From: a virus
Lineage: Duplodnaviria > Heunggongvirae > Uroviricota > Caudoviricetes
Length of the DNA: 31,466 bases
Virus record (IMG/VR): IMGVR_UViG_2645727604_000022
Strand: one strand, 5' to 3'
In this document: positions 7,007-24,266 of the stretch, in pieces
Numbering within the stretch: position 1 is the first letter of the stretch
Layout of the letters: the number at the start of each line of letters is the position of its first letter
Made by a program: the position numbers and the translations under genes
The notes under the pieces: model-generated
Told to the model about the DNA's origin: nothing
The model's input: the letters and a program-made list of their open reading frames with translations, nothing else
Databases searched by the model: none

Positions 7007-7135
7007 TTATTTTTCCTTTTCTTTTAAAGGAAAACACCCCGAAATATGTTTCTAACGTGAGAAAGAACAATAACCAATACATAGCTACTATCATAATAAT
7101 GTTTTCCTTTTATATTTTAATTACATAGAGAGATT

Positions 7136-7414
7136 TTAGAGAGTGGAATAGATGAATTCTATTTCTTTATCTAGTCTTTTGAGATTGAATGTAGAGAAAG
7201 ATAATTCTTTAATTTCTATAACACCGAAGTTTGATAGCTGTTTAAGCCAGAATTTTAAACCATCTTCAGAGCACCCTGCTCGATGTAACACATCGCTATA
7301 TTTTAGCGGTGTTGGCTTTCCTTTATAGAGGTAAGCAAGTGTTTCGTAGATGCGTTTTCCTGTGTCATTACACTGAATTCTGTCTACTTGATTTTTTACT
7401 AAATATTGAATCAT
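7136..7414 (-). CDS. Hypothetical protein (92 aa)
   Basis: ORF directly downstream of the HTH replication-like gene. Confidence 0.5.
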   Translation of the reverse strand: MIQYLVKNQVDRIQCNDTGKRIYETLAYLYKGKPTPLKYSDVLHRAGCSEDGLKFWLKQLSNFGVIEIKELSFSTFNLKRLDKEIEFIYSTL

Positions 7415-7425
7415 AACCCTCCTTA

Positions 7426-8115
7426 TTAAAATGGAATATCAAAGTCATCATACACATTTGGGTAATTCTTAGAAAAATATGCCTCAATACCATTTGGTAG
7501 CTTTAACCTGTGCTTATAGGCTAACGATGTTGCAAATTCTATAAATGATGCTCCTCCTGTTCTGGTATTCTTCTGCTTGATAATAAGAGATGCAAAATTC
7601 TCTAACACATCCTCCTCATTATCATTAGCTACCTTTTCACTTGATGAAACAGGTGTTTCTTCCGTCTCCCACGGCAAAGGCGCATCCCAATCATCAAGAA
7701 CATCAAAAGAAGGCTGTTTATGGCCTTTAGGTTGTTCCTGTGCTTCTTCTGCCTCAGAAAGATCAGAGAGTGATGATTCTCCTGGGGGAGTAATATGTGC
7801 ATCTGTGAGAGGGAGAGCATTGTAAATCAAAGATGAAATATACGGATCAGGATGTGGGGATGTTTCTAATAATCCCATCTCTTTAAGATCGTTTATCTTA
7901 CGTTTAATTGTTGACGCTGAAGACTTAAAAATCTTAGCTAATGTTTCGTGACTTTCATAACAATTAAGGTTGTTTTCCTGATAACTAAGGAATCGAAAAT
8001 AAAGCACAATATGTAATAGATCTAAATCTTTTCCTTGAGGGAATTTATCAGAATAAATCTTTGATACATTATCAAACGTGTCATAGTGTTTTGTAAAAGT
8101 TAGTTGATTAATCAT
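7426..8115 (-). CDS. Putative replication initiator / replisome-organizer-like HTH protein with SSB-like C-terminal tip (229 aa)
   Basis: HTH-like segment HETLAKIFKSSASTIKRKINDLKEMGLLE, acidic disordered middle, extreme C-terminus YDDFDIPF (E. coli SSB ends DFDDDIPF). Confidence 0.6.
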   Translation of the reverse strand: MINQLTFTKHYDTFDNVSKIYSDKFPQGKDLDLLHIVLYFRFLSYQENNLNCYESHETLAKIFKSSASTIKRKINDLKEMGLLETSPHPDPYISSLIYNALPLTDAHITPPGESSLSDLSEAEEAQEQPKGHKQPSFDVLDDWDAPLPWETEETPVSSSEKVANDNEEDVLENFASLIIKQKNTRTGGASFIEFATSLAYKHRLKLPNGIEAYFSKNYPNVYDDFDIPF

Positions 8116-8166
8116 TAAAAATCTCCTTATAAATCACGCTTAATGCGCTACTAAAGTGAATGAGGA

Positions 8167-8334
8167 TCACTTACCCTTTTTTTGTTTGATGTTCTCTGCT
8201 GCTTCAGTAATGATTTCTAACATCAAATCACTGACCATAATTTGCCTTTTCTTGGCTTCAGCAAATAAAACCTTGAAGATTTCAGGGTCAACGTGTAGGT
8301 AAGTGCGCGGAATTGGTTTCTTAGTTTCGCTCAT
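8167..8334 (-). CDS. Small ribbon-helix-helix-like (CopG/Arc-type) putative regulator, 55 aa; not in the ORF track
   Basis: Hand translation MSETKKPIPRTYLHVDPEIFKVLFAEAKKRQIMVSDLMLEIITEAAENIKQKKGK; SD AAGGAG 7 nt upstream of the ATG at 8334. Confidence 0.45.
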   Translation of the reverse strand: MSETKKPIPRTYLHVDPEIFKVLFAEAKKRQIMVSDLMLEIITEAAENIKQKKGK

Positions 8335-8353
8335 AGTTTTCTCCTTCTATTCT

Positions 8354-8542
8354 TTACTCTGTTTCAGATTCTTTTTCATTTTTTCTTAGTTCATCAATAA
8401 TCTTGAGTGCTTCATTGAAGCAAGCTGCTCGCTCTGGATAACCTCGACTCCTTGCCATATTACGATTCATTACTACTTGATGGCGTGTAAGCTCACCTTT
8501 TTTAAATGCCTCTACGACGTGTTTCGGTGTAAACCATTTCAT
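8354..8542 (-). CDS. Hypothetical small protein (62 aa), first gene of the minus-strand operon
   Basis: ORF with a candidate sigma70 promoter about 100 bp upstream. Confidence 0.45.
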   Translation of the reverse strand: MKWFTPKHVVEAFKKGELTRHQVVMNRNMARSRGYPERAACFNEALKIIDELRKNEKESETE

Positions 8543-8652
8543 AAAAAACTCCTTATTCAGTTAAAAGAAAAAACACCTTGCAAGCCTGACGGCTTCAAAG
8601 TGCATTGATTTTGATTATTTAGAGAAGAATGTTTTCTGTCCCTCTAATACCT

Positions 8653-8681
8653 ATTATTACATATAAAGAAACATTTGTCAA
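8653..8681 (-). promoter_or_regulatory. Candidate sigma70 promoter for the 8542-to-6256 operon
   Basis: On the minus strand TTGACA, 17-bp spacer, AATAAT. Confidence 0.3.
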
Positions 8682-9240
8682 TACCTTTTCACAAAAAATC
8701 TGATCTTTTTCATGCACTTACATTTTTTCTTAGCAATTCGTGCTCTCCTGTGTGGTGCTATTCTTCATTATCCGCTAAAACGCTCTAAAACGCGTTCTAA
8801 CGAGGTTTTGATAAAAGCAATACATTCCCTTATGTAATGGCTGTTTAGCTCGCCAGAGGCTTATTTAAGGGGCTTATTTTGTATTTGTTAGGTATATGAA
8901 AAGGTAATGGTAGATATAAGATAGAGAGTCACTTTATAAAACGCCCTGTAAAGCCCTGTAGTGAGTTTATTATATGTAGGCAATGCGTTTCCATTCCCTA
9001 CCCTGCTTAATGCTATTAGAGAAGCATTTAGACCCCTTATTTTTAATTAATTAAAGTATCCTCTATACATTCCTGTTATGAAACACCTCTGAATCCTTCA
9101 TAAAACACATTATGACGCAAAGAACACTTTTCTAAGGTGATTCCCTTCCTGAATGCTGTTTCTTGCGTCAAAGAGCTACACAGAGCTTATAAAGCTATTA
9201 TTAATAATAAAGTAGATAAGTAAGATAACTAAGATAGATA

Positions 9241-9660
9241 AGATTAATAAGATCAGAATTCTCTTTCGGTGTCGCCTCTGGCTTTTCCACCGAAAACAAT
9301 TACACAACTACAGAGAATAACGAGAGTTATTAAATGTAGAAAGTGGAATTGTATTGAGGCTTAGTGAAATTACACGAGGAAAGCAGAGTGTAATTGAGCT
9401 TTAGCCGCTCTCTCTTCGAGTAATTACACAACTACAGAATGTAGAAGTGGAATTAAGAGTTAGAGTTAACACATAAGCAATCAGTATGATTGGTTAGGTG
9501 ATTACTCTTCTGCGCACAGCGCAATAGATTTCTTCGTGGGCGTTATCGCCAACGAAGTTACACGAAGAAAGTAACGCTTTGCTTTCGGTGTGAGCGGAAC
9601 GGGCCAGCCACGAAGCCCAAAGGTAGCGGAGTAAGGCTGCTTGCCAGAGAGTGAAGCTAA
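9241..9660. other. Structured, relatively GC-richer non-coding block with nested hairpins and TGTGTAAT/AATTACACA motifs (possible regulatory RNA or protein-binding array)
   Basis: Hairpins TTTCGGTG...CACCGAAA, AATTACAC-N12-GTGTAATT, CTTCGTGGGCG-TTAT-CGCCAACGAAG; direct repeats AATTACACAACTACAGA at 9297 and 9422; no ORF of 60 aa or more. Confidence 0.3.
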
Positions 9661-9769
9661 CGCCGGAAGGCAAAAGATCATATATATATATAGATATAAA
9701 GAATATTATTATTATGATCTAATTAATAATCTAATATAGTTTTATTAATAGTCTTATTGTAGTTCACAG

Positions 9770-9845
9770 TGACCTACCCCCTAGCTCACTATGACCTACC
9801 CCCTAGCTCATAGTGAACTACCCCCTAGCTCATAGTGAACTACCG
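9770..9845. repeat. Iteron array: about 3.5 tandem copies of a 22-bp unit TGA(C/A)CTACCCCCTAGCTCA, next to an AT-rich tract (9660-9760); candidate replication origin
   Basis: Units start at 9770, 9792, 9814 and 9836 (22-bp period); the preceding tract is almost pure A/T including ATATATATATATAGATATAAAG. Confidence 0.6.
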
Positions 9846-10318
9846 TTACTACCAATCATCACATAGCACTCTGTGTAATGCCTTTCTATGTGTGTGCCAT
9901 AATCCCCTATATTCCCTGTGTAAATCATAGAATATCCCTAACTTATTCCTGTGTAATTCCATACTAAAAATTCAATGAAAAGTAGCTTAAAAGTGCAATT
10001 CTTACTTTCTTCACTTTTACATCACTTTCGCAAAGCCTTGTGTAGTGCGGCTTACAGAGCACCATCAGAAATTGTTGGCTAAAAATTGTTCTGCTTGTTT
10101 CTGAATGAGTTTTCTCGTTTGTGCAAATTTTAAAATTTATTTTGTTTTTACAGCCTTATTTCGTGTAATGCGTGGCATAGCAAGCCCTTTTCTTGTGTTG
10201 TCAAGACATTTGGCAACGTTCAAACATCTGTTTAGAAATGCCAAATTGTTGATCTAACAAATAAACCTGTATAAACAGAACACTATTTAATCTATTCCCC
10301 TGTGTATCCATTAGGCAT

Positions 10319-10426
10319 ACCAAATGAATACATCTAAATCGTGTAATATTCCGTACCTATAAGGCTTGAAACAGACCAAATGAATACGATATACTCATTT
10401 GCATTGGAGTAGTGCCAAATCGATAC
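10319..10426. promoter_or_regulatory. res-like recombination / autoregulatory site upstream of the serine recombinase gene
   Basis: Three direct copies of ACCAAATGAATAC-like 13-mer (10319, 10375, 10414); the middle one forms a 25-bp palindrome CAAATGAATACGATATACTCATTTG. Confidence 0.45.
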
Positions 10427-10440
10427 ATTAAGGGGATTTT

Positions 10441-10980
10441 ATGAGCAATATCGGTTATAAGCGTGTGAGCACTGTAGATCAGAACACTGATCGCCAGCTT
10501 GCAGGAGTAACGCTTGATAAAGTCTTTGAAGATAAGCTGTCAGGTAAAGACACTAACCGTCCAGGATTGCAGGCGTGTTTATCCTATCTGAGAGAAGGCG
10601 ACACCTTACACGTGCACTCTCTCGACCGTTTAGGGCGTAACACCTTAGACATTCTTGCCTTAGTGGAACAACTTAATAATCGAGGTGTAATTGTTCGATT
10701 TCATAAAGAAGGGATCATTGCAGACATTACAAGCGCGATGGGAAAAATGATGCTTACGATGTTGTCGGCAGTTGCAACGTGTGAACGTGAACTGATGTTA
10801 GAGCGTAAACGAGAAGCGCAAGCCGTCAATCCTACAAAGCGTGGTAATGGAAAAGCAGTAGATAGAGAAGGTATAAAGAAAGCCCTTTCTGATGGCCTGT
10901 CAGTGCGTAAAACCGCCGAGAGCTTTAATGTTGCTCCTTCAACGGTACAGCGAATTAAGAAGGAAGAAGAGGAGGCGTAA
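10441..10980 (+). CDS. Small serine recombinase (resolvase/invertase family), 179 aa
   Basis: N-terminus MSNIGYKRVSTVDQNTDRQ with catalytic-Ser context, FEDKLSGKDTNRPGL and GDTLHVHSLDRLGRN match the Hin/resolvase family pattern; SD AAGGGGA upstream. Confidence 0.9.
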   Translation: MSNIGYKRVSTVDQNTDRQLAGVTLDKVFEDKLSGKDTNRPGLQACLSYLREGDTLHVHSLDRLGRNTLDILALVEQLNNRGVIVRFHKEGIIADITSAMGKMMLTMLSAVATCERELMLERKREAQAVNPTKRGNGKAVDREGIKKALSDGLSVRKTAESFNVAPSTVQRIKKEEEEA

Positions 10981-10996
10981 TGCCTCCTTGATATTT
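10970..10996 (+). terminator. Putative intrinsic terminator overlapping the recombinase stop codon
   Basis: Hairpin AGGAGGC-GTAAT-GCCTCCT followed by a T-rich tract. Confidence 0.45.
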
Positions 10997-11421
10997 GGGG
11001 ATTCTGGATTTTCCAGATCGGGGGGCGCTGAAAATCGCGTTAAGCACCTCTCGCAATCTAGCCATAAGGGAGGGGATTCATATGTATTTAGATGTATTTA
11101 TAGCTATTTATGGCTATTTATGGCTATTTATTTTTTATTTATCTTTATTTAAAAATAACCTTATAAATCAATAAGATACAGAACTATCTGTTTATATTTT
11201 AATCAATTAAATCAAGTTTAATACCCTTAAATACCCTAAAAATAGCCTTAAATACCCCAATAATTAATTTTAAGGCTTTCCGTGTTCTCTTCTGCATTAT
11301 GAAAATGCAAAATAAGGCACAAAACAAGCTCACAGACGCATTAAACACACATCACCTATACACCCCTATACCAAGCAATGAAAACAGCGTTAGAATGCGT
11401 CCTGTTGCGTTCTGGAGATTT

Positions 11422-11580
11422 TCAGAAATCCTCTCTAAGCCATTTCAACTCACTAAGGAGTTTTCTTTCTTCGTTCTCTCTCTGTTTACGCTCTAACCAG
11501 GCTTTTCCTTCTGGCGTAGACAGGAACTTACGAGCGTGAATCTTGCGGTTATTACGTTTTATAGCTGCAATGTTTTTCAT
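11422..11580 (-). CDS. Possible small basic protein (52 aa); not in the ORF track
   Basis: Hand translation MKNIAAIKRNNRKIHARKFLSTPEGKAWLERKQRENEERKLLSELKWLREDF; AGAGG 6 nt before the ATG. Confidence 0.25.
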   Translation of the reverse strand: MKNIAAIKRNNRKIHARKFLSTPEGKAWLERKQRENEERKLLSELKWLREDF

Positions 11581-12183
11581 CGTGTGCCTCTGTATTCATA
11601 TGAAAATTAACAAGTTACATACTACACAGGGAGACTACGCATAAAACACAATACAAGTAAAGATACATTTTCAAGACAATAGGAGCCATAAAGCGCCTTT
11701 GATGGTTATACCAAAAAATAAGCGCCGTAGGCGTATCCACTAAAAAGGGCTTTTTCACAAAAGCTATGAAGTCTTAGCAGTTCTTCTCTTATCAGGCACC
11801 CGTTGTACTCCGGTGGACGAAACCGTGCTAGAGCTTGATTCTTTCCCGATCAAGTTAGGTTTTGAAGAGGTGGGCTTTAATCCACTATTGCACTTAAAAC
11901 TCTTCCCATCATTTAGCCTGTTTATCCTCTGCAACGTCTCACGACGTGTGGCATCATTGGACACCGCGCCAGGTGTGGAACATCTTGCTAAGAGTTTTGG
12001 TAGAAGGTTTAGAGACGGTGGCACGTCTTCCAGCTTCAAAGGAACTTGTTACGAGGTTGAGCCTGGGAACTACTCGCCCATACGTGTTACACTACCAAAG
12101 CCCATAACAACGTATAGGCGTTTGTAAGTGATAACAGAAGATACAATTTCTTAGAGAAGTTAAGCTAAGTTATTGATTTTCTT

Positions 12184-12202
12184 AATGGTGCCGATAATAG
12201 GA
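12184..12202. repeat. attL: 19-bp copy of the tRNA-Thr 3' end
   Basis: Identical to 30021-30039. Confidence 0.6.
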
Positions 12203-12725: not shown

Positions 12726-12845
12726 GCAAATCCTGAATAAATGCGAATCGGAAGGATAACGATACTGACGTACTCACAATTCTGTAAAGGTGAATAAAGG
12801 AAATTTGCTTAATACGCATAAGTTACATGTGGAATAATCCCATAT

Positions 12846-13031
12846 CTACCTGCGCGGCGCTGGCTTCTTCCACTGGTAGGCAGGTGCTCGCATCATTTCG
12901 CGGAACCTGTCGCGCCGGGCTATATCGGCATTAACTGATCGTTCTATCTCCCGTTGATCTGCCTGTGTAAGCTGATGGCCTCCGTGCTCAAGTTTGGCGA
13001 TGGTCAATAAGGCTATTTCGCGTGGTGTCAT
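12846..13031 (-). CDS. Hypothetical small protein (61 aa)
   Basis: ORF with SD AGAGGG 8 nt upstream. Confidence 0.35.
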   Translation of the reverse strand: MTPREIALLTIAKLEHGGHQLTQADQREIERSVNADIARRDRFREMMRAPAYQWKKPAPRR

Positions 13032-13328
13032 ACGTCATACCCTCTGGAAGAATGAAACACGCCCGGATTAAATTTCATTTTTCGCGGGTATAAAAAAACG
13101 ATGGGGCGGGCAGTCCCGGATAGTCAGGGCTGTAGAGATTTGACTACCCCCTCCCCACTGGATTCAGGTTACTGCTATTCCGTTAAGCGCTGCTTACGGG
13201 GATAGCTGCGTTGTGATTTTGACCATTCAGGTCGCCGCTATTTCCTCACCGATTGGGTGCTACGCGCGCGCGTACTTGTCCCGAAATACCAGAAACCGCC
13301 AGCCAGAGGATGATTTCCCTCTGGTGGT

Positions 13329-13610
13329 CTACCTTTGCCTCTTGCCGCCATTTAACCGGAAGGCGTTACCGTTCGGTTGCGCTATCCCCATGCGGTGTTG
13401 CGTTTCGGTAACAGCTTTATGCAGGTCGCCAAATTCCTCAACCTTCACGGGCGGGCGCTTCACGTTCTCCAGACACGTTTCACGGCGGCGCTTTATCCAT
13501 TCCCGATCATCGTCCTCGGTGCATAACAGCATGACTTCCATCCATCGTGCGGCAGCTCTCCGGTATAGCCCTTTTGACTCCAGCTCTTCAGCTTTCCTGT
13601 CCCTTATCAT
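13329..13610 (-). CDS. PerC-family-like small transcriptional regulator (93 aa)
   Basis: N-terminus MIRDRKAEELESKGLYRRAAARW resembles the PerC/Pch family as recalled; SD GAGAGG 7 nt upstream. Confidence 0.5.
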   Translation of the reverse strand: MIRDRKAEELESKGLYRRAAARWMEVMLLCTEDDDREWIKRRRETCLENVKRPPVKVEEFGDLHKAVTETQHRMGIAQPNGNAFRLNGGKRQR

Positions 13611-13640
13611 TTCTGCCTCTCAGATTATATAGATAAGCAA

Positions 13641-13770
13641 AAAGGTGTTGGTTCAGTTGGTTCAGTTGGTTCAATTTGTAAAGATTGTTGTTTTTATTGT
13701 GTTTTTTCTGAAATATTGAACCAACATCAACTCATTTTGAACCAACACAGCCCAGCTCTGAACCAACAAC
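13641..13770. repeat. Iteron cluster IR-L: three tight GTTGGTTCA repeats then three spaced TGAACCAAC repeats
   Basis: Reverse complement matches cluster 20679-20799, including a 43-bp perfect terminal match. Confidence 0.65.
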
Positions 13771-13869
13771 ACAGCGATAGATTTGTGATTGGTCCGTTAT
13801 TTTCTGGCTGATATTTGAGCGTATAACAGTGTTATACAGTGGTATACTGTATGGATATTACTCACTGAT

Positions 13870-14325
13870 ATGGTCTTTGCAATGAGCAAATCTAATCTGG
13901 TCGCGTTCCGCATCCCATCTGAATTGCAGGATGAGTTTAATCGGTCTGTTCTCGCTTCTGGAGGAGATAAAACCTCCTGGCTTGTTGATGCGATTCGCAT
14001 GAAGCTGGGGCAGCCGGAAAAGTCTATTGATTCACGAATGCTTGGGCTGGTGGAGCGCATGGAAAAAGCCGCTGCGTCGCTTATTGCCGGAAAGCCGAAC
14101 ATCCCACCAAAACCATATAACGAAACGGCAGTTATAAAGATCATTGCCGATACCATCCAACAGGGATTTGATAATGGGCGTGTGATAGCTGAACGGATCA
14201 ATGAAGCAGGCTATCAAACAAAAGCTGGTAAAGCGTGGGATAAAGATATTTACAGCGCGTGGAAGCGTCAGGGAAGCAATGCTGAAAAGCTAAAAGCAGT
14301 GATTGATTGTAAGGTCAGCGTATAA
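13870..14325 (+). CDS. Mnt/Arc-like ribbon-helix-helix domain protein with C-terminal extension (151 aa)
   Basis: RHH-like N-terminus SNLVAFRIPSELQDEFNRSVLASGGDKTSWLVDAIRMKLG; no clear SD. Confidence 0.55.
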   Translation: MVFAMSKSNLVAFRIPSELQDEFNRSVLASGGDKTSWLVDAIRMKLGQPEKSIDSRMLGLVERMEKAAASLIAGKPNIPPKPYNETAVIKIIADTIQQGFDNGRVIAERINEAGYQTKAGKAWDKDIYSAWKRQGSNAEKLKAVIDCKVSV

Positions 14326-14404
14326 ACATGAGTGCCCATTGGAAAGTTGCTTGGGCCAATACCTTTATACACCAGCAGGTAGTGACGATAGGTGAGGATC
14401 AGAT

Positions 14405-14626
14405 ATGAAAGGCAGAACGCCACACATTGAACATCAAGCCAACCACTTCCCTGATGTTCGCAATGAGATGATTGCCATTCGCGGTGATATGCACGGATTG
14501 GAGCGTCGAATTATTGATAAGATTGATGAAAATAGAGATAAGGCCAGTGAAAATCAAAAGTGGATCATCGGCCTGTTGATTTTATCAATTCTTATCCCGC
14601 TACTTATCGCATTGGTCACAAAATGA
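14405..14626 (+). CDS. Small protein with C-terminal transmembrane anchor (73 aa)
   Basis: SD GAGGA 9 nt upstream; C-terminus KWIIGLLILSILIPLLIALVTK. Confidence 0.5.
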   Translation: MKGRTPHIEHQANHFPDVRNEMIAIRGDMHGLERRIIDKIDENRDKASENQKWIIGLLILSILIPLLIALVTK

Positions 14627-15146
14627 ATATCCAATGTGTATGCTGTCGATGCTACGCGCGCGTACTTGTCGCAAAATATCAGGCAAAGGCCAGATTCAGA
14701 AAGTCGTGATAATCACCAGCACAACATGAGATGTCATGTAACGCGATTGATCACACCAGATACATGTGATGGTGTACCCGCATAAAACATCGTCATAGCG
14801 CGTCCTGTGCGCACATACGCCGATAATCAACACATCACCACCACTCTGTCTCGTGTAGAGAACAGTTTCATGGTATCCCCCGCCATCGTGTGCGTACTGG
14901 TCGGACGTGGTTGCAAAATTTTTGCAACTGATACCCCTCGCGCGCGTACTGGTCACGAAATTGGTGTTTTGCTGTGGCAGTGATATCAGAAAAATCTTCC
15001 TGTTTCACATAAAGCGGATATGCGCGTACTGTAACGACCCCATCAACGGGATCGGATTTGAAATCCTGACCCAAGCTATGTACCAAATGCCATGTCTTGG
15101 ATATATGATGATTGCCATTCTAAACAAAGCTAAAGGGAGGGTTGGT

Positions 15147-15503
15147 GTGAGGGGGCAGGCAGTTATAATTATTTTGTTGGGTTTAATTGTCGCAAAGTTA
15201 TACCCGACTTTATCGATGGTGTTTTTTGCCATTATTGGCGCAGCCATCTTTACTTATATCATTAAACATACCGCCTTGTGGTTCTATAAAATTGATATAG
15301 TTCAGAAGTTTGTACGTCCTGTGTCGATGTTATTACTAGCATTAATACCAATTGGTGTTGCTTATGTAATTGATGTTTTTTACCCTTCGGACACTGAAAG
15401 GTGGTTGATAGTTTTGTATTGTTATATTGGTGTAGCTCTCTTTTGTGGATTTCATTGGTGTTTCGAAAAGATCAATGACTCTATTTCAAAGAATAAAGAT
15501 TGA
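15147..15503 (+). CDS. AT-rich small integral membrane protein with four predicted TM helices; candidate immunity / superinfection-exclusion protein (ORF track frame opens at 14907; start here assigned to GTG 15147)
   Basis: SD GGAGGG 6 nt before GTG; four hydrophobic helices; about 37% GC on sampled lines versus about 63% in the adjacent 705-aa gene. Confidence 0.6.
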   Translation: MRGQAVIIILLGLIVAKLYPTLSMVFFAIIGAAIFTYIIKHTALWFYKIDIVQKFVRPVSMLLLALIPIGVAYVIDVFYPSDTERWLIVLYCYIGVALFCGFHWCFEKINDSISKNKD

Positions 15504-15517
15504 GGCCATCCGTGGCC
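15504..15517. terminator. Short hairpin between the convergent membrane-protein and 705-aa genes
   Basis: GGCCA-TCCG-TGGCC hairpin; weak flanking U-runs. Confidence 0.3.
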
Positions 15518-15522
15518 ATTCA

Positions 15523-17640
15523 CTAGTCATTATCTGGATCATTAGATAGCCAAGTAATGATGCCCAGTCTGGCGATGGTCCGTTTTTCCTGTTCAGGAAG
15601 AGAGTTAAAAAAACTCTTCCATTGAGGGGAGCGCCTGATACGTGAATCAACAATGTGCCCAGGCGCTTTTCCGTGTAGATTTTTTACTGCGCTCTGGAAG
15701 GCTGGCGAGGCAATTAATTTATCCGCAGCATCAGCCGCCCCTGCTCCACCAGCTAATCGAGCTTTACTCGCCAATCTTGCTCCAATATCAGCCCCAGCAA
15801 TGGCTCCAAGCGATCCAAAATGAGCGCCTACCATCGTGCCTATTTTTTGAATGTGTTTTGCTGCTAGTTCGTATGGAGCTGTTACCCGATTAAATCTGTT
15901 TACAAACTCATTCAGCTTACCAGTAGATATTTCATGCGCTTTAGCATTTTTTATTGCTCTGGCAACTTTGTATACATCATATAGTCCGCTCATTGTTTCT
16001 TTTGGCAAATGTTCAGCCAAAGTCTTTAGCTGTCCACTGTGTTGCAAGTTTTGCCACCAATCTGCAAAGCCAGATGGATTAAAGTCGGCCCCACGCTTCC
16101 CAGAGGAAAGCATATCTCTTAATGCTGTTCCTACTAGCTCCCTTCGCAATGTTCTTGATGGAGTATTTTGCATAATCTCACGAAACCCTCTCGCATCACC
16201 TTTTGCCATAGATTGAAGAGAATTCGTTACTTTATACGCTATATCCCCATTAAGTGTTTTCCCGCGAAGATTTACCATTTGCCTTTCTAAGTTTTTTCTC
16301 ATAGCTACAAGGCGTTGTGCGACTTCGAAATCTCGCAAGTATCCAGTATTGGATAAGACAGATTTTTGGTCTTCAGCTAAAGCTCCATATAGTCTTGATA
16401 GCGCTTCTTTATCAGCATCTTTGTATGGCCCCTGCTTTTTATTTAGGGCATCACCAACTAAACGCCTTTGCCTGTTTAAATTTGCATACGTTAGGATTCT
16501 ATCTGGGCCGGGGTTTATTGCTGTAAAAACTCGCTTTTCTATTGGGTCAAGATTATCCCACCCTCCTAAATCATCAGCGATTTTTTCCAGCATAGTGCTT
16601 GTGTTATTTGCTTCGACTTTTGTTCTTGGTGATAGAGCGGAATCAACACGTTTATATAACTGATCACTACGGTTTTTTAGTGCTTCCATTCTACTATTTA
16701 TCTGATAAATATATTTTTCGCTCATAGCTAACGCATCTGGCGCACCAGCAACATCATCGATTATCTTGCCAGCACTAGAGGCTAATTCGCTTATTGCTTT
16801 ATCTTCTTGAGCTTTTAACGCTGATCCTGTCCGTGACTTTAGGGCTTGCTCTACAGCTTGGTATTGCTCATTTCCTGATAAATGAGAAGGAAGAACTGAA
16901 TCAACATGAAGCCTATTTGCAGCCTCAACAATTTCTTTCTGAGGTTTTAGATCTAGCCCTTCAAGCGAAGAGGCAAGATTTGGGTTGCCTTGTGCAGATA
17001 ACTTACGAATTTTCTCTTCGGCAGGAGTAATCCCCTCAATATCTGGAATCGAAGAAACATTCTTCTTGGTTAATTTCCCAGCTATTTTATTAATTGCAGG
17101 GCCAGCAAGTTCGGCTACAGGGCCAGCCACAGCGCCAATAGCAGCGCCGGAAGCAACATCGCTATTTGTTCCATTGGCTACAATAGCCCCTTCTCCAGCA
17201 CCAAGCCCTGCGGCGGCAGCCAGTCTTGCCGCCCCTTTGGGAACCTGAGAAATAATCCCACCACCACTAACAAATGGCGCTGCTTGTCCAACGAACTCAC
17301 CAACATCTTGTGCGGTTGATGGTTTTGCCGCTAACTTCTGCTGTAGAGACTGAATTGCGGCTTGCTCTTCTGGTGTCATATCCTGAAACAGGCCAACACC
17401 TTTACCAACATCCATCAATCCACTGAGAACGCCATACATAAAACGGTCGAAACCGTTAGCATTATTAACAACATTTTCCTGTCTGGAATTTTCCTCTGGT
17501 GAAACCAAAGGTGATTGCTGCTGTTCTGGTTGGGCATCAAGCACAAAACCATCAGGAAGCTGTGAACTATCAGGAAACTGTGAGTTATCAGGTTGTTCAT
17601 CGAGCACAAAACCTTCCGGTAAGATTACATTTGCTGCCAT
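15523..17640 (-). CDS. Hypothetical large Gly/Ala-rich coiled-coil protein (705 aa), last gene of the LexA-box operon
   Basis: N-terminal repeats PEGFVLDEQP / PDGFVLDAQP, long Gly/Ala zipper segments, no P-loop or nuclease motif found. Confidence 0.75.
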   Translation of the reverse strand: MAANVILPEGFVLDEQPDNSQFPDSSQLPDGFVLDAQPEQQQSPLVSPEENSRQENVVNNANGFDRFMYGVLSGLMDVGKGVGLFQDMTPEEQAAIQSLQQKLAAKPSTAQDVGEFVGQAAPFVSGGGIISQVPKGAARLAAAAGLGAGEGAIVANGTNSDVASGAAIGAVAGPVAELAGPAINKIAGKLTKKNVSSIPDIEGITPAEEKIRKLSAQGNPNLASSLEGLDLKPQKEIVEAANRLHVDSVLPSHLSGNEQYQAVEQALKSRTGSALKAQEDKAISELASSAGKIIDDVAGAPDALAMSEKYIYQINSRMEALKNRSDQLYKRVDSALSPRTKVEANNTSTMLEKIADDLGGWDNLDPIEKRVFTAINPGPDRILTYANLNRQRRLVGDALNKKQGPYKDADKEALSRLYGALAEDQKSVLSNTGYLRDFEVAQRLVAMRKNLERQMVNLRGKTLNGDIAYKVTNSLQSMAKGDARGFREIMQNTPSRTLRRELVGTALRDMLSSGKRGADFNPSGFADWWQNLQHSGQLKTLAEHLPKETMSGLYDVYKVARAIKNAKAHEISTGKLNEFVNRFNRVTAPYELAAKHIQKIGTMVGAHFGSLGAIAGADIGARLASKARLAGGAGAADAADKLIASPAFQSAVKNLHGKAPGHIVDSRIRRSPQWKSFFNSLPEQEKRTIARLGIITWLSNDPDND

Positions 17641-18923
17641 TTTCCGTTCCTGTAAATGATTTTCTGACCAGTTTTAGGGTTGGTTGCCGTTGCGCCTTCT
17701 GATATTCCTCCGGTTGCCGCTTTTGCCTGTCCAGTGCCAGCCTGTGATGTAGGCTGCCCGGAAACATCGTCAAATAGCTTCGCTTTCCTTCTTTCAAGGC
17801 TTTTTCTTAGCCCCTGAGGAATAGTTTCTCCATATGTATCGAGATACTCGTCAACCTGCTGGTTAAACTGCTGCCCCATAGCATTGGCGTTGATTTTTGC
17901 GGCGTTAACAATGTTATCCTTTGCCTCCTGCGACAGGCCGTTTCCAGCATTAAGCTGGTCTATGTATCCTTTGATTTGTCCCCATATGCCATCAGACCGC
18001 ATTACCTGAACCTGTTCGCCTTCACGAACGACTGACTGCGGGTCAAGAGATTTCATGTAGTTGAAGATAATCCCAAGTTGGGCAGCGCCAGTATTTACCT
18101 TGCTAAGGGCTTGCAGAGAGTTTGCCGCCGCTCTGACAGAGTTATAATTTTTGCCAAAATTGGTAATGTCAGAATTTAATCCCTTAATTAAGTCTGCTGA
18201 CGGCTTACCTTTTTGCCCCAGCTCCATTAGCTTCAATCCCATCTCATCTGAGTGAATTTGTGCTCGCTGAGCCCTGTCTAGTTGAGCGTTCTGGATATTT
18301 GCCCATCCTCTCGCGTTCTCCATGTCAGCCTGACGCATACTTTCATCCAGTCGCCCTTGCTCAAGTCGACGACCTTCCATTTGATCTTTGATATCGAAAT
18401 ACTTCTCATGACCGAGAGAAAACAGTGCCATACTACCAGCAAGCCGCTGGAACCCCTGTGGATCATTAACATGCATTTCGGCAACAGACTCAGGAGAAAT
18501 TCCCAAGCGACGCATTTCATCTTCGTTATCTGCTATGAATTTTCCAAATGCCCCAGTTCCGAGCGAAGATGCGATTTGAGCACTAGTCGCAAGATGACCA
18601 ATAGAATTTCTCTGGTCGTCATCAATAAAGCCCATCCCTTTCTGAACGCTTTCAAATTCTTCTGGATACTCAGAAATAAGACTGCGCATTTTGTTTCTGT
18701 CTCCAGACTCAAAAGCCCCGGCATATGCTTTCTGAAACTCTGCTTTACGCTGTTGTTGACGTGCCTGCTGATTAATCTCAGCAACGCCTCTTAGCCCCTG
18801 TAGCGCCATTAAACCTACGTTTGGCTGCTGCTGATACTGCACAGGCTGAGGAACGGAAGAACGAGGAGCATTATCATTTTGCGGTGCCATGCTAGGCAGC
18901 CCGCCAAGTTGCCATGTCGCCAT
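17625..18923 (-). CDS. Hypothetical coiled-coil protein (432 aa)
   Basis: Q-rich N-terminus; overlaps neighbouring genes by a few nt (translational coupling). Confidence 0.75.
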   Translation of the reverse strand: MATWQLGGLPSMAPQNDNAPRSSVPQPVQYQQQPNVGLMALQGLRGVAEINQQARQQQRKAEFQKAYAGAFESGDRNKMRSLISEYPEEFESVQKGMGFIDDDQRNSIGHLATSAQIASSLGTGAFGKFIADNEDEMRRLGISPESVAEMHVNDPQGFQRLAGSMALFSLGHEKYFDIKDQMEGRRLEQGRLDESMRQADMENARGWANIQNAQLDRAQRAQIHSDEMGLKLMELGQKGKPSADLIKGLNSDITNFGKNYNSVRAAANSLQALSKVNTGAAQLGIIFNYMKSLDPQSVVREGEQVQVMRSDGIWGQIKGYIDQLNAGNGLSQEAKDNIVNAAKINANAMGQQFNQQVDEYLDTYGETIPQGLRKSLERRKAKLFDDVSGQPTSQAGTGQAKAATGGISEGATATNPKTGQKIIYRNGKWQQM

Positions 18924-19600
18924 TAGAATCCAAGCCCCCCAACAAGACCAATAAGCCCACCACCAATAGCGCCGGCCGCAGTTCCTATTCCAGGAACAAC
19001 GGAACCAAGTTGCGCACCCGCTAAAGCGCCTGATGCTGCCCCACCAATACCACGCGCAAGACTGGATGGCTGCTGCGCCTGACCTGCACGAATAGCGCCA
19101 AGCCCCTGCAAGAGTTGTCCGGTATTATTGGCGTAGTTTTGCCCTGCCGTTGCCTGCCCTGATGCCGCATTCATCCCGACATTTAGCAGGTTTCCATAAT
19201 TTTGCATTTGCCCACTAAGCCAATTGTTATAAAGCATGGGCGCAATGGAAGATAACTGGTTACTGGTAGCTGTTGAGCCAAGCCCCCCGGTAGCTTCTGC
19301 TGAGACAAGGTTCTGATAACGGGCCTGATCTGCCTGTGTTTTATATAAACCAGAACCAAAGAAATCATTCGCGGCTTTATTCTGCCCTTCCAGAGTCATC
19401 AGTCCTTGTAGTTGTTGTAAAGCAGGCAATCCGACTTCTGCATACGGCTTGAGATTATTCATCACCGTATTCCACTGCTCGCGCTGCAAATCAATTGCCT
19501 GCTGCTGGGCCTTCGCCTGAGCTTTAGAGGCACCACCATCACCGCCTTTTTCGTATACGGCACGATTGAGATGTTTATGAGCTATATGGGTAATTAACAT
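18923..19600 (-). CDS. Hypothetical protein with extremely Gly-rich hydrophobic C-terminus (225 aa)
   Basis: C-terminus GIGGAASGALAGAQLGSVVPGIGTAAGAIGGGLIGLVGGLGF. Confidence 0.7.
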   Translation of the reverse strand: MLITHIAHKHLNRAVYEKGGDGGASKAQAKAQQQAIDLQREQWNTVMNNLKPYAEVGLPALQQLQGLMTLEGQNKAANDFFGSGLYKTQADQARYQNLVSAEATGGLGSTATSNQLSSIAPMLYNNWLSGQMQNYGNLLNVGMNAASGQATAGQNYANNTGQLLQGLGAIRAGQAQQPSSLARGIGGAASGALAGAQLGSVVPGIGTAAGAIGGGLIGLVGGLGF

Positions 19601-20055
19601 TCGCTGAATTCCTTATATTGTTGCCGAGTTAACTGATAAAGCGTTACGCCGACGGGTTTACCACATCTGATATAAGCATCATCAAGGTGACCAACACGGG
19701 TAGCGCCAAGCAAACGGATAATTGCCCGTCCGTATTTCGTGGTGTCAGGAACCATAGTGATGCTGTTAAGGAATGGTGAGTTTTCGAGAAGCCATTTGCA
19801 GAATAATCGATGTCCTTGCAGTGCATATTCACCACGGAATCCGGGGTCGTACACCGCATGGCATTCAACAACGCTATGCCAGAAGTTACGCACTTCATGA
19901 ACGCCAGCCAGCACTAATCCTTCGTAGATGCCGAGATATACCGCATCAGGCTTGATGTAGTACGTGTGCCCCGGCTCAACAATATTTTCGGTATTGCCTG
20001 GCTCGTTAAGAAAGGCCTGTAATCGCACAGGGTTATCAATAAATTTTAGTTCCAT
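19594..20055 (-). CDS. Hypothetical protein (153 aa)
   Basis: ORF coupled to downstream genes; no diagnostic motif (GNAT motif looked for and not found). Confidence 0.7.
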   Translation of the reverse strand: MELKFIDNPVRLQAFLNEPGNTENIVEPGHTYYIKPDAVYLGIYEGLVLAGVHEVRNFWHSVVECHAVYDPGFRGEYALQGHRLFCKWLLENSPFLNSITMVPDTTKYGRAIIRLLGATRVGHLDDAYIRCGKPVGVTLYQLTRQQYKEFSEC

Positions 20056-20071
20056 GCGATGCCATCCATTT

Positions 20072-20233
20072 TCACATACAGCCTGCCAGCGCCTTATCTA
20101 TTAACCCTCGTGCAATTTCATGCAGAGTTGGCGCTACTCCAATTCCTGATTTTTTACGCTGCTCTTCCTGAATTTTCTTTATCGCTTCCATTTGCTTCTC
20201 ACTTATCAATACCGGCTTTACTGAAATAGCCAT
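20072..20233 (-). CDS. Small RHH-like putative regulator (53 aa), first gene of the operon; not in the ORF track
   Basis: Hand translation MAISVKPVLISEKQMEAIKKIQEEQRKKSGIGVAPTLHEIARGLIDKALAGCM; GGGGG 5 nt before ATG. Confidence 0.45.
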   Translation of the reverse strand: MAISVKPVLISEKQMEAIKKIQEEQRKKSGIGVAPTLHEIARGLIDKALAGCM

Positions 20234-20248
20234 AACGCCCCCTTAGAA

Positions 20249-20264
20249 CTGTATAAAACAACAG
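20249..20264. promoter_or_regulatory. LexA-type SOS box CTGTATAAAACAACAG, immediately downstream of a perfect TATAAT (20267-20272, minus strand)
   Basis: Matches CTGT-N8-ACAG with an AT-rich spacer; sits 16-31 bp upstream of the RHH start codon; only such box found in the window. Confidence 0.45.
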
Positions 20265-20678
20265 TTATTATAGTTTCACAAATCGCAATATTCATCATCG
20301 TAATTGCAAAATATGAAACAAATAGCACAAAAAAATGCCACCGCTCAGTAGCTGGTGGCATCGTTCTGTGTGTCAGGTTTTGACAGGTTTTTTATGGACT
20401 CTAAAAACTATATTTATGGTGTCGCATTACTCTTCACGGCAGGCGCTTTTCAGTTCTGCCCTTGCTTCTGGCTCCATTGGTAATTTGATTCGCGATCAGC
20501 TATGCGGATGGTTTGCTGAACAGGCATAACAACTTCTCAGAGGCTGTTTTCTGAACTACGAAAATTTCGTAGTGCTCACTTTCAAAAACGTCACGCCCTT
20601 GTACACAGGATTTTACGAAAGTCTCGTAAAACACTCTCTGATGCCAGCCAGGTGTTGTGCGCATCAATTCAGTCACAT

Positions 20679-20799
20679 TGTGTTGGTTCAAAATACCGTG
20701 TTGTTGGTTCAGTGTTGGTTCAATAAAAAGAATAAAATCCTTATAAAACAATACTCTTTACAAATTGAACCAACTGAACCAACTGAACCAACACCTTTT
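20679..20799. repeat. Iteron cluster IR-R: inverted partner of 13641-13770, 19 bp downstream of the primase-helicase stop
   Basis: Three spaced GTTGGTTCA then TGAACCAACTGAACCAACTGAACCAAC. Confidence 0.65.
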
Positions 20800-20817
20800 C
20801 TACGCACATGAAGAAGC

Positions 20818-23577
20818 TCATTCTTCAGATGAGTTATAATCTCCTGGCTGGTAATTGAGTACATAAACGTTTATTTGTCGTCCCTGAATACGTGGTGATT
20901 TTCTTTGGTATCCACGACCGCTGTTTGGTGGGGTTAGCATCCCGGCTTTTTTCAACACTTCAGCAAACTGTTTTGCGTTGAAACCACATGCGATCTCCTT
21001 TTCAAATGTGGCCGGGAATGTGTAGAAAATCATTGGGCTTTCGTCATGTTCTCCACGCTGACGGTATCCGGCTAAATCTTTGATGGGCAAATCTGCCGGG
21101 CTGTATGGAAATGGTGCAAAACGGCTAAGCCCATAGGCATTAAGAAATGCCTCCGTTTGTTCAATAATCTGCTGATGCTCTTTGTTACCTGTGCCGAACT
21201 CGCGCAACCATGCGTTATAGCTGTGCTGTATCGCATCACGGCATGTCTGAGCATCCCAGCCTGTTACAACCTCGCCTAACAACAATGCGGCCTCCAGAAT
21301 GGCAAATCGCGCGGCTACACGGTGAACCTGCTCACCATAATCGGATGGGATCAGGCTTCTCCATCTGCTTTCGCAGTCACGAACGGTTTTAATAGCCTGT
21401 TGCTGGTGGTCTGCCAGCCATTTAATCCACTCACGCCCGGACGCGCCGTGGTGATGCTGGTAAGCGTCTTTCAGTGCGTCTGCGTGCTGTTTTCCGTTCT
21501 GGTAATCGTGAAAGCGTACTGCTTTACTCAACGGAATATTCAGCAGTCGCACCAGTTGCCCGGCTTTGGTTTTTCGCCCGGAAGTAGCGATAAATGTTTC
21601 TAAATCCATTTCTCCGGTGCTGATTGCCACTGTACGCCAGCGTTTTAGATCCCGGTTTCCACCATCTTTAGCGCCTTGCAGTTTCCCTACACCGTTAAAT
21701 AACGCATAGGCAGACTGTGAGACGCTGACAGGATCAGCGCCCTGACCAACTTCATCAAGCGGCATTAGTCCGTCATTGTGGGCGGCGGCCTCATTTGCCA
21801 GCCCCAGCGCGGTTCCGTACCACGTCAGCCGCAGTAAATCAGGGTTGCCGTATAAGCTGCTCGCCACGTTTGCCGTGGTGGTCTTACCTGCGCTCGACTG
21901 CTCATAGAAATGAATGCCGAACCCGTCAGCGCCCACCAGCCCAATCAATGGCGCTGCCAGTGCTGCGCCGATCCCGGTCATCATTGAATAGTTACCAAAG
22001 GACAGACGCGCCACGTTATCACGCCAGCTTTTCTCGCTCCCTGAGACGGTATATCCGGCTGCGGCTGAGCTTCTCCCGCTGAACAGCACAGGATTTTCAG
22101 GTGTTCCGATGATTTCCCCATCAGGCATGATGTACGCTCCGCATTGCCAGCCAGTGGCATGAGCAACACGCCACAATTCACGAGAGCCACTGCGTTGTAG
22201 CCAGTCTGCCAGTATTGCTCTGAGGCTGCTTTTGGTCGTGACATTTACCCCACCAGCTTTAAGTGTGCGCCATCCTTCACGTTCACCAATATCAGCCAGT
22301 GGAATGGCAGCGGTTGTCGGCGTTTCAGAACCAAACGACAGCCAGCGAAGAATGAGATACTGGTCTTTATCGTCTCTGCCAGTACCGATAACGCTTAACG
22401 GAGAACATAACCAGCTTTCGTTATTGATGATTTCTCCACTCTGGCTGTCAGCTCTCGGAGATACCCAATAAATACCATCCTCGCGGCTTTCTATTCTTGG
22501 TTTCAGTGGATCGGTATCCATAACCTTAAAATCGCTTCCCTCAATGGTCTGTGGCTCCTGTTTCACGCCATTACCCTGTGGTTGGTACATTGACTTATTG
22601 AACGCTTCTGTGGCGCATTTAATGCCGTGTTTTTGGTGGTAATCATTCCAGTCTGCTTTGTGATCTGTCGGGGGTAATGCCACCCATCCAGAAACAGATA
22701 AAGCTGCTTTTTCTGCTGCTATTCTCCCCGTGTTTTGTCTTCCTTCGCTGTGGTCGTTATCCGCAGCAATGATGATTTGTGCTGAAGGAAATTTATCCCG
22801 CAGTACCTGGGCGACATATAACAGGTTCCCGGCATCAATCGCCGCCACTGTCAGCGCCTCTGGACGCATTAAATGGGCAGATAATGCCGTTGCCAGCCCT
22901 TCTGCGATTAAGATGCTCTGTGTTGTTTCTGGTGCGTTTATGGCGTGATATGCCCCTCGCTTTGCTGAACCTGTCAGGAGTCTTTTTTCACCATGTGAGG
23001 TAATAGTCTGTGCTGCTGTTACTGCGCCGGATTTATCCACCAGCGCCAGCAACAGAGATCCATCGGGCAACACGGGGAATGTAAAATCACCTACCCCTTT
23101 CGCAACCAGATAATCAGATTTGCCGTTTACAGCCTTTCTGCGCATGTCATCAAACTGACGGGAAAACGTATCCCGTCTTTGTTGTTCGTCCTTCTCTGCC
23201 CTTTTCAGGCGCTCCTGTTCGCGTCGCTGGCGCTCGGTTTCCAGTTGTTCCCGTTTCTGGCTGGTGGCTTCTGGTGTTTCCGTTGTCCGGTAATCAATAC
23301 CCAGAACATCAGCGGCAAGAAGCGCCGCCTCTGTTGTGTCGCAGTTATTTACGCGTTTAATTAAATCCAGCCCATCACCAGCGCCGCACTGATTACAGAT
23401 GAAGCTACCGCGCCCGTTGTCATCGAACCGGAATCGATCTTTGCCCCCACATGCAGGGCAGGGAGCATGACGGCGCGGAGAGTCAGGGACATTTATGTTC
23501 AGGCAGCCCAGCACATGAGGCCAGTTGTTTTCAGACGCACTGATAACCTGACGGATAAGATCAATGTTTCGCATCAC
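20818..23577 (-). CDS. P4 alpha-like primase-helicase (919 aa)
   Basis: N-terminal zinc-ribbon CPACGG...CNQCG, P-loop YEQSSAGKTTT; size and context typical of satellite/island replication proteins. Confidence 0.85.
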   Translation of the reverse strand: MMRNIDLIRQVISASENNWPHVLGCLNINVPDSPRRHAPCPACGGKDRFRFDDNGRGSFICNQCGAGDGLDLIKRVNNCDTTEAALLAADVLGIDYRTTETPEATSQKREQLETERQRREQERLKRAEKDEQQRRDTFSRQFDDMRRKAVNGKSDYLVAKGVGDFTFPVLPDGSLLLALVDKSGAVTAAQTITSHGEKRLLTGSAKRGAYHAINAPETTQSILIAEGLATALSAHLMRPEALTVAAIDAGNLLYVAQVLRDKFPSAQIIIAADNDHSEGRQNTGRIAAEKAALSVSGWVALPPTDHKADWNDYHQKHGIKCATEAFNKSMYQPQGNGVKQEPQTIEGSDFKVMDTDPLKPRIESREDGIYWVSPRADSQSGEIINNESWLCSPLSVIGTGRDDKDQYLILRWLSFGSETPTTAAIPLADIGEREGWRTLKAGGVNVTTKSSLRAILADWLQRSGSRELWRVAHATGWQCGAYIMPDGEIIGTPENPVLFSGRSSAAAGYTVSGSEKSWRDNVARLSFGNYSMMTGIGAALAAPLIGLVGADGFGIHFYEQSSAGKTTTANVASSLYGNPDLLRLTWYGTALGLANEAAAHNDGLMPLDEVGQGADPVSVSQSAYALFNGVGKLQGAKDGGNRDLKRWRTVAISTGEMDLETFIATSGRKTKAGQLVRLLNIPLSKAVRFHDYQNGKQHADALKDAYQHHHGASGREWIKWLADHQQQAIKTVRDCESRWRSLIPSDYGEQVHRVAARFAILEAALLLGEVVTGWDAQTCRDAIQHSYNAWLREFGTGNKEHQQIIEQTEAFLNAYGLSRFAPFPYSPADLPIKDLAGYRQRGEHDESPMIFYTFPATFEKEIACGFNAKQFAEVLKKAGMLTPPNSGRGYQRKSPRIQGRQINVYVLNYQPGDYNSSEE

Positions 23578-23932
23578 CGTACCCCACGTGGTCTATAGCG
23601 TTTGCGATATGGCTAACTAGCATCTGCCACTTGGTTATTCCGTAATCAGTCAGCATGCCATCATTGTTTAGCCACATATCAAATTCAGCGGTTGTCGCAA
23701 GTTTCCACTTATCGCCGTGGACAGTCCTCATTGCTGGGTACATGAATGCGCAAATCAGATCACAAACATCTGACGGCTTCAGAGATGTAGTAATGGTGCG
23801 TCCCTCTGGCGTCTGAATTGCCATTTTCTCTTCACCAGTAGAATGAAGGTTATGAATCCACACAGCACCAGCAATCTTTGCCACCTGCTCTCCGATTGCG
23901 GAGCTAAGCGCCATTTCTACATTTTCACGCAT
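23561..23932 (-). CDS. Hypothetical protein (123 aa)
   Basis: ORF overlapping the primase start (coupled). Confidence 0.55.
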   Translation of the reverse strand: MRENVEMALSSAIGEQVAKIAGAVWIHNLHSTGEEKMAIQTPEGRTITTSLKPSDVCDLICAFMYPAMRTVHGDKWKLATTAEFDMWLNNDGMLTDYGITKWQMLVSHIANAIDHVGYGDAKH

Positions 23933-24266
23933 GAGAACCTCCCGCTACAGTTGCGCCCATGTCATTAACCATGCTTTGCCATATCTCACGCCCGACGTCA
24001 GTCAATCTGTCCTTAGTGACGCAACGATCAAGAAGCTCGATCCCCACGGTTTCCCACTGCGGGTAGAACACTTTCATGGCTGCCAGTGCGTAACTATCGA
24101 TCAGGCTGCGAACGCCTTTTACTCCATTGACGATTTCCACACGGACGGCCTCTCCGTCCGCATCAATCATGAAATAGTCCCCGCCGCTGGTGGAGGTAAT
24201 GTGGTTATACAGTGCTGACGCATACTTATTTGCCAGCGCATTCAGTCGGAAATTTTTAGTAATCAT
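23925..24266 (-). CDS. Hypothetical protein (113 aa)
   Basis: ORF in the coupled gene chain. Confidence 0.55.
   Translation of the reverse strand: MITKNFRLNALANKYASALYNHITSTSGGDYFMIDADGEAVRVEIVNGVKGVRSLIDSYALAAMKVFYPQWETVGIELLDRCVTKDRLTDVGREIWQSMVNDMGATVAGGSHA

Follow-up and report, generated by a model that had tools for sequence, protein, structure and literature searches.

The question raised by this locus is what a small gene for a predicted membrane protein does at the end of a block of phage DNA-ejection genes, in the place where P22-like phages carry the exclusion gene sieA. The window, that is, the whole stretch of 31,466 nucleotides that was analysed, comes from an E. coli chromosomal island located between dinD and yicC. 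A sequence-only reading had drawn attention to the gene as lying convergently to a large gene, and this large gene can now be identified as an ejection gene of the P22 gene-16 type. The features on which the discussion below relies are the following:

14627-15146, plus strand: 520-bp non-coding leader with direct repeats (repeat search and cross-genome comparison)
15136-15140, plus strand: Shine-Dalgarno (SD) sequence GGAGG, 6 nt ahead of the GTG at 15147
15147-15503, plus strand: coding sequence of a small predicted membrane protein of 118 aa, with a GTG start (ORF reading and family alignment)
15504-15522, no strand assigned: 19-bp gap between the convergent stops, with the hairpin GGCCA-TCCG-TGGCC at 15504-15517 (sequence)
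15523-17640, minus strand: 705-aa ejection (DNA transfer) protein of the P22 gene-16 type (phrog_6704, 1e-174; phrog_770 'DNA transfer protein', 2e-50)
17625-18923, minus strand: gp20-type ejection protein (Pfam Inj_translocase, 6e-48; phrog_917)
18923-19600, minus strand: gp7-type ejection protein (Pfam P22_gp7, 7e-73)
19594-20055, minus strand: gp14-type protein, DUF2824 (Pfam DUF2824, 1.5e-61; phrog_651)

The minus-strand neighbours of the 118-aa gene correspond to the P22-type genes 14, 7, 20 and 16, which encode head-completion and ejection proteins. By tblastn, the 705-aa protein shares 41-63% identity with its gene-16 counterparts in three Lederbergvirus phages (Sf101, E212 and Kapi1). 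The folding of positions 15490-15540 by RNAfold gave -10.4 kcal/mol for a structure that includes the 15504-15517 stem between the two convergent genes.

The frame of the 118-aa gene offers several possible starts. A long ORF of 198 aa extends from 14907 to 15503 on the plus strand, and the GTG at 15147 is internal to it, whereas RefSeq begins the same frame at an ATG at 15108, giving a 131-aa 'hypothetical protein' (WP_001406180.1, WP_001363070.1). In a DNA alignment of the E. coli gene with its Salmonella counterpart, the block GGAGGTTGGTGTG is invariant, and both the SD and the GTG are unchanged across the Salmonella orthologues. The similarity between loci ends ∼35 nt 5' of the GTG, even among the Salmonella loci, and the N-terminal extensions annotated in different assemblies are unrelated to one another. 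Moreover, two metagenome homologues (loci L017 and L018) have an ATG at the equivalent codon, preceded by AAGGAGG or AGGAGG, and one of them carries an in-frame TAA 15 nt 5' of its ATG. Both the 198-aa and the 131-aa frame were rejected in favour of GTG 15147 on the conserved SD and start, the limit of similarity and the metagenome starts. Because GTG 15147 is the start conserved across relatives, the RefSeq call is probably 13 codons too long. The strong SD that the earlier reading had placed before a GTG is therefore the GGAGG at 15136-15140, and its remark that the 5'-most 240 nt of this ORF (14907-15146) overlap repeats and are unlikely to be coding is confirmed as well.

The E. coli and Salmonella genes align without gaps at 52% identity in DNA and 46% in protein, with 46, 38 and 88 differences at codon positions 1, 2 and 3, respectively (pN 0.355, pS 0.94). 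In this alignment, the first transmembrane helix (TM1) is nearly invariant as protein despite many synonymous changes. These alignments show that the 118-aa gene is a real gene and that the family, whose relatives are 35-48% identical, is under purifying selection.

The family is a small one. A word-indexed search of 5.8 billion proteins returned only the E. coli copies and one 45%-identical protein of Salmonella enterica. When 1.84 billion representative proteins were searched exhaustively with a family profile, only six matches appeared, all of them fragments or members of the same family; two new members, 118 aa and 147 aa long, came from metagenomes. Neither tblastn of the 118-aa protein against 50,697 phage genomes nor megablast of the region against phages gave a match. 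Among 5426 complete E. coli genomes, the gene is present in 87, in each as a single copy with the full 357 nt and at least 99% identity, and 86 of these copies are annotated as a gene; short or frameshifted variants are found in public assemblies (P0003-P0007). The gene-16 allele of the window is likewise present in 87 of the 5426 genomes at an identity of at least 99%, a comparison of counts and not of genome lists. The two genes are adjacent in all four of the island loci inspected (L001, L014, L015 and the window).

Every relative found lies directly after gene 16 and is convergent with it. Eight Salmonella loci (L006-L013) are complete P22-like prophages, from portal to tailspike, with the gene order portal, scaffold, coat, gp4, gp10, needle, 14, 7, 20, 16, the orthologue of the 118-aa gene, variable cargo, mnt/arc/ant and tailspike. 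L017 is a metagenome contig with a P22-like array of genes 10/26/14/7/20/16 followed by Arc and Ant genes, and its homologue comes after four Arc-family repressor genes on the same strand, with a gap of 42 bp. In L018, the homologue stands between the tailspike gene and a cut gene 16. A hairpin followed by a T-run (CCCGG-ttcagtg-CCGGG-TTTTGTT, L018:5860-5913) ends ∼15 nt before the SD of this last homologue, and there is therefore no space for a promoter between this terminator and the start.

The sequence-only reading had taken base composition as a sign of separate acquisition, setting an AT-rich gene of ∼37% GC beside a neighbour of ∼63%. The measured values are 35.0% for the 118-aa gene and 43.8% for the adjacent 705-aa gene; the contrast was overstated and has an ordinary explanation in the amino acids. 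The window has a mean GC of 44.3% (sd 6.3%, 357-nt windows), and 9% of the 357-nt windows are equally or more AT-rich. At codon positions 1, 2 and 3, GC is 37.8, 31.9 and 35.3% in the 118-aa gene, against 57.9, 43.1 and 30.5% in the 705-aa gene, so that at the third position it is higher in the former. The deficit is confined to codon positions 1 and 2 and therefore reflects amino-acid composition rather than synonymous sites. The GC predicted from the amino acids of the gene with the codon usage of its neighbours is 39.8%, and the Salmonella orthologue has 35.9% GC beside a gene 16 of 47.8%. These figures indicate that low GC is a trait of this hydrophobic protein family, coming mainly from its amino-acid composition. 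Since it is a family trait, since homologues in other hosts likewise adjoin gene 16, and since the gene and the gene-16 allele are found in equal numbers of E. coli genomes, separate acquisition is unsupported, and a foreign origin argued from GC was rejected.

Hydropathy gives the protein four hydrophobic segments, at about residues 5-19, 22-39, 58-78 and 86-105. Two AlphaFold2 runs place helices at 2-18, 20-46, 50-78 and 82-117, with a pLDDT of only 59; the tertiary model is therefore unusable and fold comparison meaningless (a Foldseek search of the BFVD viral models with this query gave nothing below E 1.6). As a prediction from hydropathy and modelled secondary structure, the four-helix membrane protein of the earlier reading holds. 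Each of the four family members has an acidic loop 3, whereas K and R abound in its loop 2 and C-terminus; the C-terminus of the 118-aa protein is FHWCFEKINDSISKNKD. This charge pattern fits a topology of four transmembrane helices with both ends cytoplasmic (N-in/C-in), and from these predictions we infer the membrane location and orientation of the protein. The mean pairwise identity among the four members is ∼75% in TM1 and the KLYP turn of loop 1 and 58% in the FYPSxTERW stretch of loop 3, and is lowest, at ∼25%, in TM2 and the cytoplasmic loop 2. In the predicted topology, the best-conserved parts, namely helix 1 with its KLYP turn and the FYPSxTERW loop, face the periplasm.

Searches of family collections gave no match in PHROGs at E up to 0.01 and none among the anti-phage defence models of PADLOC-DB at E up to 1. 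With the E. coli protein, two matches fell short of their cut-offs: Bax1-I in Pfam (PF01027; E 0.0015, 18.8 bits for a cut-off of 34.1) and CBO0543 in NCBIfam (NF041644; E 4e-5, 23.7 bits for a cut-off of 35). The first is absent from the Salmonella orthologue, the sole other member scanned against Pfam, and the second from the other three family members, all four having been scanned. Both matches span the helices. Membership of either family was rejected, the matches being sub-threshold and not common to the family, and we regard them as matches of hydrophobic composition. GtrA-like, SMR, LrgA/CidA-type and holin families were considered for their size and four helices; none of them appeared in Pfam at E up to 10. 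As far as these profile searches go, no curated protein family of Pfam (searched in a copy without the SieA model PF26849), PHROGs, PADLOC or NCBIfam claims the 118-aa protein.

The known occupant of this slot is SieA. In P22, gene 16 (plus strand) and sieA (minus strand) are convergent, with 22 bp between their stops. SieA always lies between genes 16 and 9, is sufficient alone to block injection, and is escaped through changes in the C-terminal parts of gp16 and gp20 (PMC10883804). A fourth helix is present in its types B and C, which are also the longer ones, and the recognition by SieA of so varied a range of gp16 and gp20 proteins is a problem still to be solved (PMC10883804). The 118-aa gene (plus strand) is similarly convergent with gene 16 (minus strand), with a gap of 19 bp, and it encodes a small protein predicted to lie in the inner membrane with four helices, for three to four in SieA. 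Like sieA, its relatives sit between gene 16 and the tailspike/antirepressor region (L006-L013, L017 and L018), and the order in L017 recalls that of mnt, orf59a and sieA in P22. Local tblastn found no SieA homologue of type A or B in the window or at the locus of any relative, in a run where types A and B matched each other at ∼1e-19 as a positive control. At its loci, the 118-aa gene is thus present in place of sieA of these two types.

However, the likeness does not extend to sequence. The comparison covered types A and B, represented by SieA of P22 (type A) and of the E. coli HS prophage HS1 (type B), against which BLASTP gave E 1.7 and E 64, respectively. The comparison by hhalign of the family profile with a combined alignment of type A and type B SieA gave probabilities of 2.3% and 9.2%. 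SieA has a conserved C-terminal cytoplasmic motif, FxRYPxEAxxFNK (Leavitt et al. 2024, PMC10883804), which the SieA alignment shows and the 118-aa protein lacks. The proteins also differ in size (118 aa against 162-212 aa) and in what is conserved, which is TM1 and a periplasmic loop in the one and a cytoplasmic motif in the other. Because there is no similarity to types A and B and the motif is absent, the 118-aa protein is not a member of the SieA family, and homology was rejected. By these comparisons, the protein family is unannotated and unrelated in sequence to the known occupant of its slot.

HK97 gp15 and T4 Imm are further small phage proteins of the inner membrane that stop DNA entry, the HK97 gene being carried as a moron; they belong to different phage groups and have fewer helices. 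By library searches (tblastn of phage genomes, PHROGs and Pfam), which gave no hit above threshold for the 118-aa protein, they share no sequence relationship with it. HK97 gp15 is cited in the work on SieA (PMC10883804, reference 8).

In E. coli, the gene is preceded by the 520-bp leader. The core of its direct repeats, GYGCGTACTKGTC, has plus-strand copies at 13268 (13268-13280), 14658, 14890 and 14942, and a weaker plus-strand copy is seen near 15025 by alignment. As a pattern, GYGCGTACTKGTC has five matches in the window for 0.72 expected, a number reached in none of 100 shuffles, the fifth being a match with two mismatches on the other strand at 25218. Rfam gave nothing relevant on 12800-15700 and no match to the leader, the promoter scan found no sigma-70 consensus site on the plus strand of the leader, and the terminator scan scored no T-run terminator. 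The leader is present in 545 of the 5426 complete E. coli genomes (∼10%), compared with 87 for the 118-aa gene; most of the 545 have it at 95-99% conservation, and the genes for small envelope proteins that follow it are of at least three unrelated kinds. Directly upstream of it, at 14405-14626 on the plus strand, is a gene for a 73-aa protein with a C-terminal membrane anchor (phrog_6324, 5e-11; a weak match to the holin phrog_689, E 0.003). This gene occurs in E. coli islands only and does not accompany the relatives of the 118-aa gene at their Salmonella and metagenome loci.

One of the other genes behind the same leader defines a second family with four predicted transmembrane helices. Its 116-aa product is annotated as 'hypothetical protein' (WP_000560496.1 / WP_001330364.1), and the family is found in 228 complete E. 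coli genomes (L019:7506-7856; L021:5898-6287). It shares with the 118-aa gene the leader, the SD, the GTG, an almost identical first helix (AQAVIMVFLGLIVAKLYP) and four hydrophobic segments, and it likewise converges on a gene-16 'injection protein', in a degraded P22-like prophage as well as in an island. However, past residue 20 there is no significant similarity between the two proteins, and the second family pairs with a different, 701-aa type of gene 16. Another gene with the same leader and start encodes a signal-peptide protein of ∼132 aa (L020:7522-7920, E. coli CP53) and is present in 126 genomes. The gene 16 on which it converges, of 701 aa, shows no detectable similarity to that of the window (E 0.25). 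The signal-peptide protein is ∼30% identical to the product of a gene beside the repressor gene in 434, Sf6 (gene 38) and HK446, annotated in 434 as 'repressor protection protein'. Its identity is likewise ∼30% with the product of a gene that the P22-like phages Emek and ST-35 carry at 11.6-14.4 kb, which lies, by coordinates only, about where gene 16 ends in P22.

The slot after gene 16 is a recurrent home for small envelope proteins, and for other genes too. Phage Sf101 has an Arc/Mnt-like protein in the sieA slot, and because the slot also holds such genes unrelated to exclusion, position alone is weak evidence. The sieA slot of phage E212 (MZ043897) is occupied by a 75-aa ORF that lacks annotation and encodes two hydrophobic helices (L003:6121-6348, minus strand); it lies on the strand opposite to gene 16 and overlaps the stop of that gene.

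The island between dinD and yicC consists of an integrase, regulators and a DUF5906 primase, followed by ejection-protein genes only. Inspection of its annotation found no capsid, portal or tail genes, and there is no tailspike gene in the window because the island holds only genes 14, 7, 20 and 16. It resembles a satellite-type element that supplies its own ejection proteins; a literature search returned no relevant paper on satellites with ejection proteins or on such islands. Islands of this type (window 13000-31466; L001, L014, L015, L020 and L021) have an integrase, an HTH regulator, AntA/AntB, Ash and PerC, together with a primase of the DUF5906 or TOPRIM-DUF927 type. Their virion genes are those of P22-type ejection only, 20 and 16 always and 14 and 7 sometimes, and they occur at several integration sites (yicC and the pao/ykgL region). 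Positions 1-12200 of the window belong to a separate element adjoining the island, which encodes a tyrosine integrase, a resolvase and an HTH protein, as well as a Dit-like tail protein and a major capsid protein E. In 137 E. coli genomes, at least 80% of this element is present; it may represent another satellite-like element, one that encodes a capsid, in tandem with the first.

What, then, could the 118-aa protein do? The explanation that we tentatively favour, while giving it somewhat less than an even chance, is that it is a functional analogue of SieA, which would exclude phages at the step of DNA entry. We infer this analogy from the position of the gene, the predicted topology of its product, the pattern of conservation and the replacement of sieA. 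The protein would be made from the resident element, presumably through expression outside the virion operon, and would sit in the inner membrane with four helices and both ends in the cytoplasm. There it would interfere with the gp20/gp16 DNA-delivery conduit of incoming P22-like phages, the surface of contact probably being the conserved periplasm-facing KLYP turn together with FYPSxTERW. The earlier reading had called such genes typical of immunity, superinfection-exclusion or abortive-infection factors, and the slot in which P22-like phages carry sieA makes exclusion a plausible fit. The slot itself, the family-wide adjacency to gene 16, the absence of sieA, the topology, the periplasm-facing conservation and the other envelope proteins that occupy the slot all speak for exclusion. 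Against it stand the lack of sequence or profile similarity to SieA, of its motif and of any match to a defence family, the failure of the leader scan to find an upstream promoter, and the pLDDT of 59 of the models. In addition, there are phages with related gene-16 proteins that are without the 118-aa gene.

The protein could also be a moron envelope protein that brings its prophage host some other benefit, such as a change in a transporter, stress tolerance or resistance to agents other than P22-like phages, in a region that tolerates insertions. The cargo of the region between genes 16 and 9 is indeed varied (YafO toxin, P63C, DUF1902, ClpP, Arc proteins and the relative of the 434/Sf6 gene), and that no defence family matches the protein would also be in keeping with such a role. 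However, the gene directly abuts gene 16 in four diverged lineages while the other cargo of the region varies, and its conserved parts are the periplasm-facing ones. We consider this explanation unlikely, although it is the one that best withstands the evidence after exclusion.

It is improbable that the protein is a membrane-damaging effector, either an abortive-infection or toxin pore or a holin/antiholin-like protein; in that case, infection or induction would lead to death or depolarisation of the cell, without a block to entry. Its small size and four helices would suit such an effector, as would the weak holin similarity of the anchored 73-aa protein encoded upstream on the same strand. 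However, none of the Salmonella or metagenome loci has the 73-aa gene, which is therefore not a conserved partner, and no holin, RexB-like or toxin family matches the 118-aa protein itself. Moreover, 87 genomes carry the gene intact and almost unchanged although no antitoxin can be recognised, and the lysis cassettes of P22-like phages are located elsewhere.

A role with the ejection proteins of its own element, as a receptor or chaperone for the gp16/gp20 conduit or in protecting the producer cell from its own gp16, would account for all homologues adjoining gene 16 and for the 118-aa gene and the gene-16 allele each being found in 87 E. coli genomes. However, the gene is on the strand opposite to the late operon and is therefore not co-expressed with gene 16, and E212, Kapi1 and Sf101, which have the same type of gene 16, are without a copy. 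Moreover, gp16 acts in the newly infected cell, before a gene on the incoming DNA is expressed, and such a role appears very improbable. As for protection against the neighbouring operon, which the earlier reading put forward as a check, no evidence for it came to light. Least probable of all is a functionless remnant decaying in the E. coli island along with leftover ejection genes, for although the island is without capsid, portal and tail genes and some copies of gene 16 are interrupted by IS elements, all 87 copies of the 118-aa gene are of full length and nearly identical, 86 of them annotated, and purifying selection across genera and a conserved SD and start codon argue against decay.

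Exclusion by a SieA analogue can be joined with the leader and the islands into a wider reading, which we regard as doubtful. The 118-aa gene would found a fourth class of injection blockers for P22-like phages, unrelated in sequence to SieA. Among E. coli strains, the gene would represent one of several exchangeable alleles of a cassette for small envelope proteins, all driven by the 520-bp leader, the SD and the GTG. The cassette is carried by islands with an integrase and a primase, in about 10% of complete E. coli genomes, in which ejection genes are the sole virion genes. These islands could be satellites of P22-like phages that bring both ejection and exclusion proteins. If this were true, it would represent a previously undescribed way of contesting the DNA-entry step. 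An unrelated and smaller protein in the sieA slot would offer another and independent means of probing the gp20/gp16 conduit where it meets the inner membrane, and would add to the prophage exclusion genes that escape defence finders based on homology. The E. coli setting also raises the question of why primase-bearing islands keep only ejection genes and an exchangeable envelope-protein cassette. Should the gene have no exclusion phenotype, it would be one more uncharacterised membrane moron, of little consequence.

Finally, the region upstream of these genes contains further repeats. Between the divergent PerC gene and a gene for a 151-aa protein, at 13644-13760, three tandem GTTGGTTCA units are followed by three reverse-complement copies (TGAACCAAC), and the palindrome TACAGTGGTATACTGTA stands just before the start of the 151-aa gene. 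By eye, the 151-aa protein was suspected to be a ribbon-helix-helix protein (Mnt-like); its PHROG match is only weak, and Pfam does not support the assignment. The GTTGGTTCA and TGAACCAAC arrays, together with the palindrome, look like operators.
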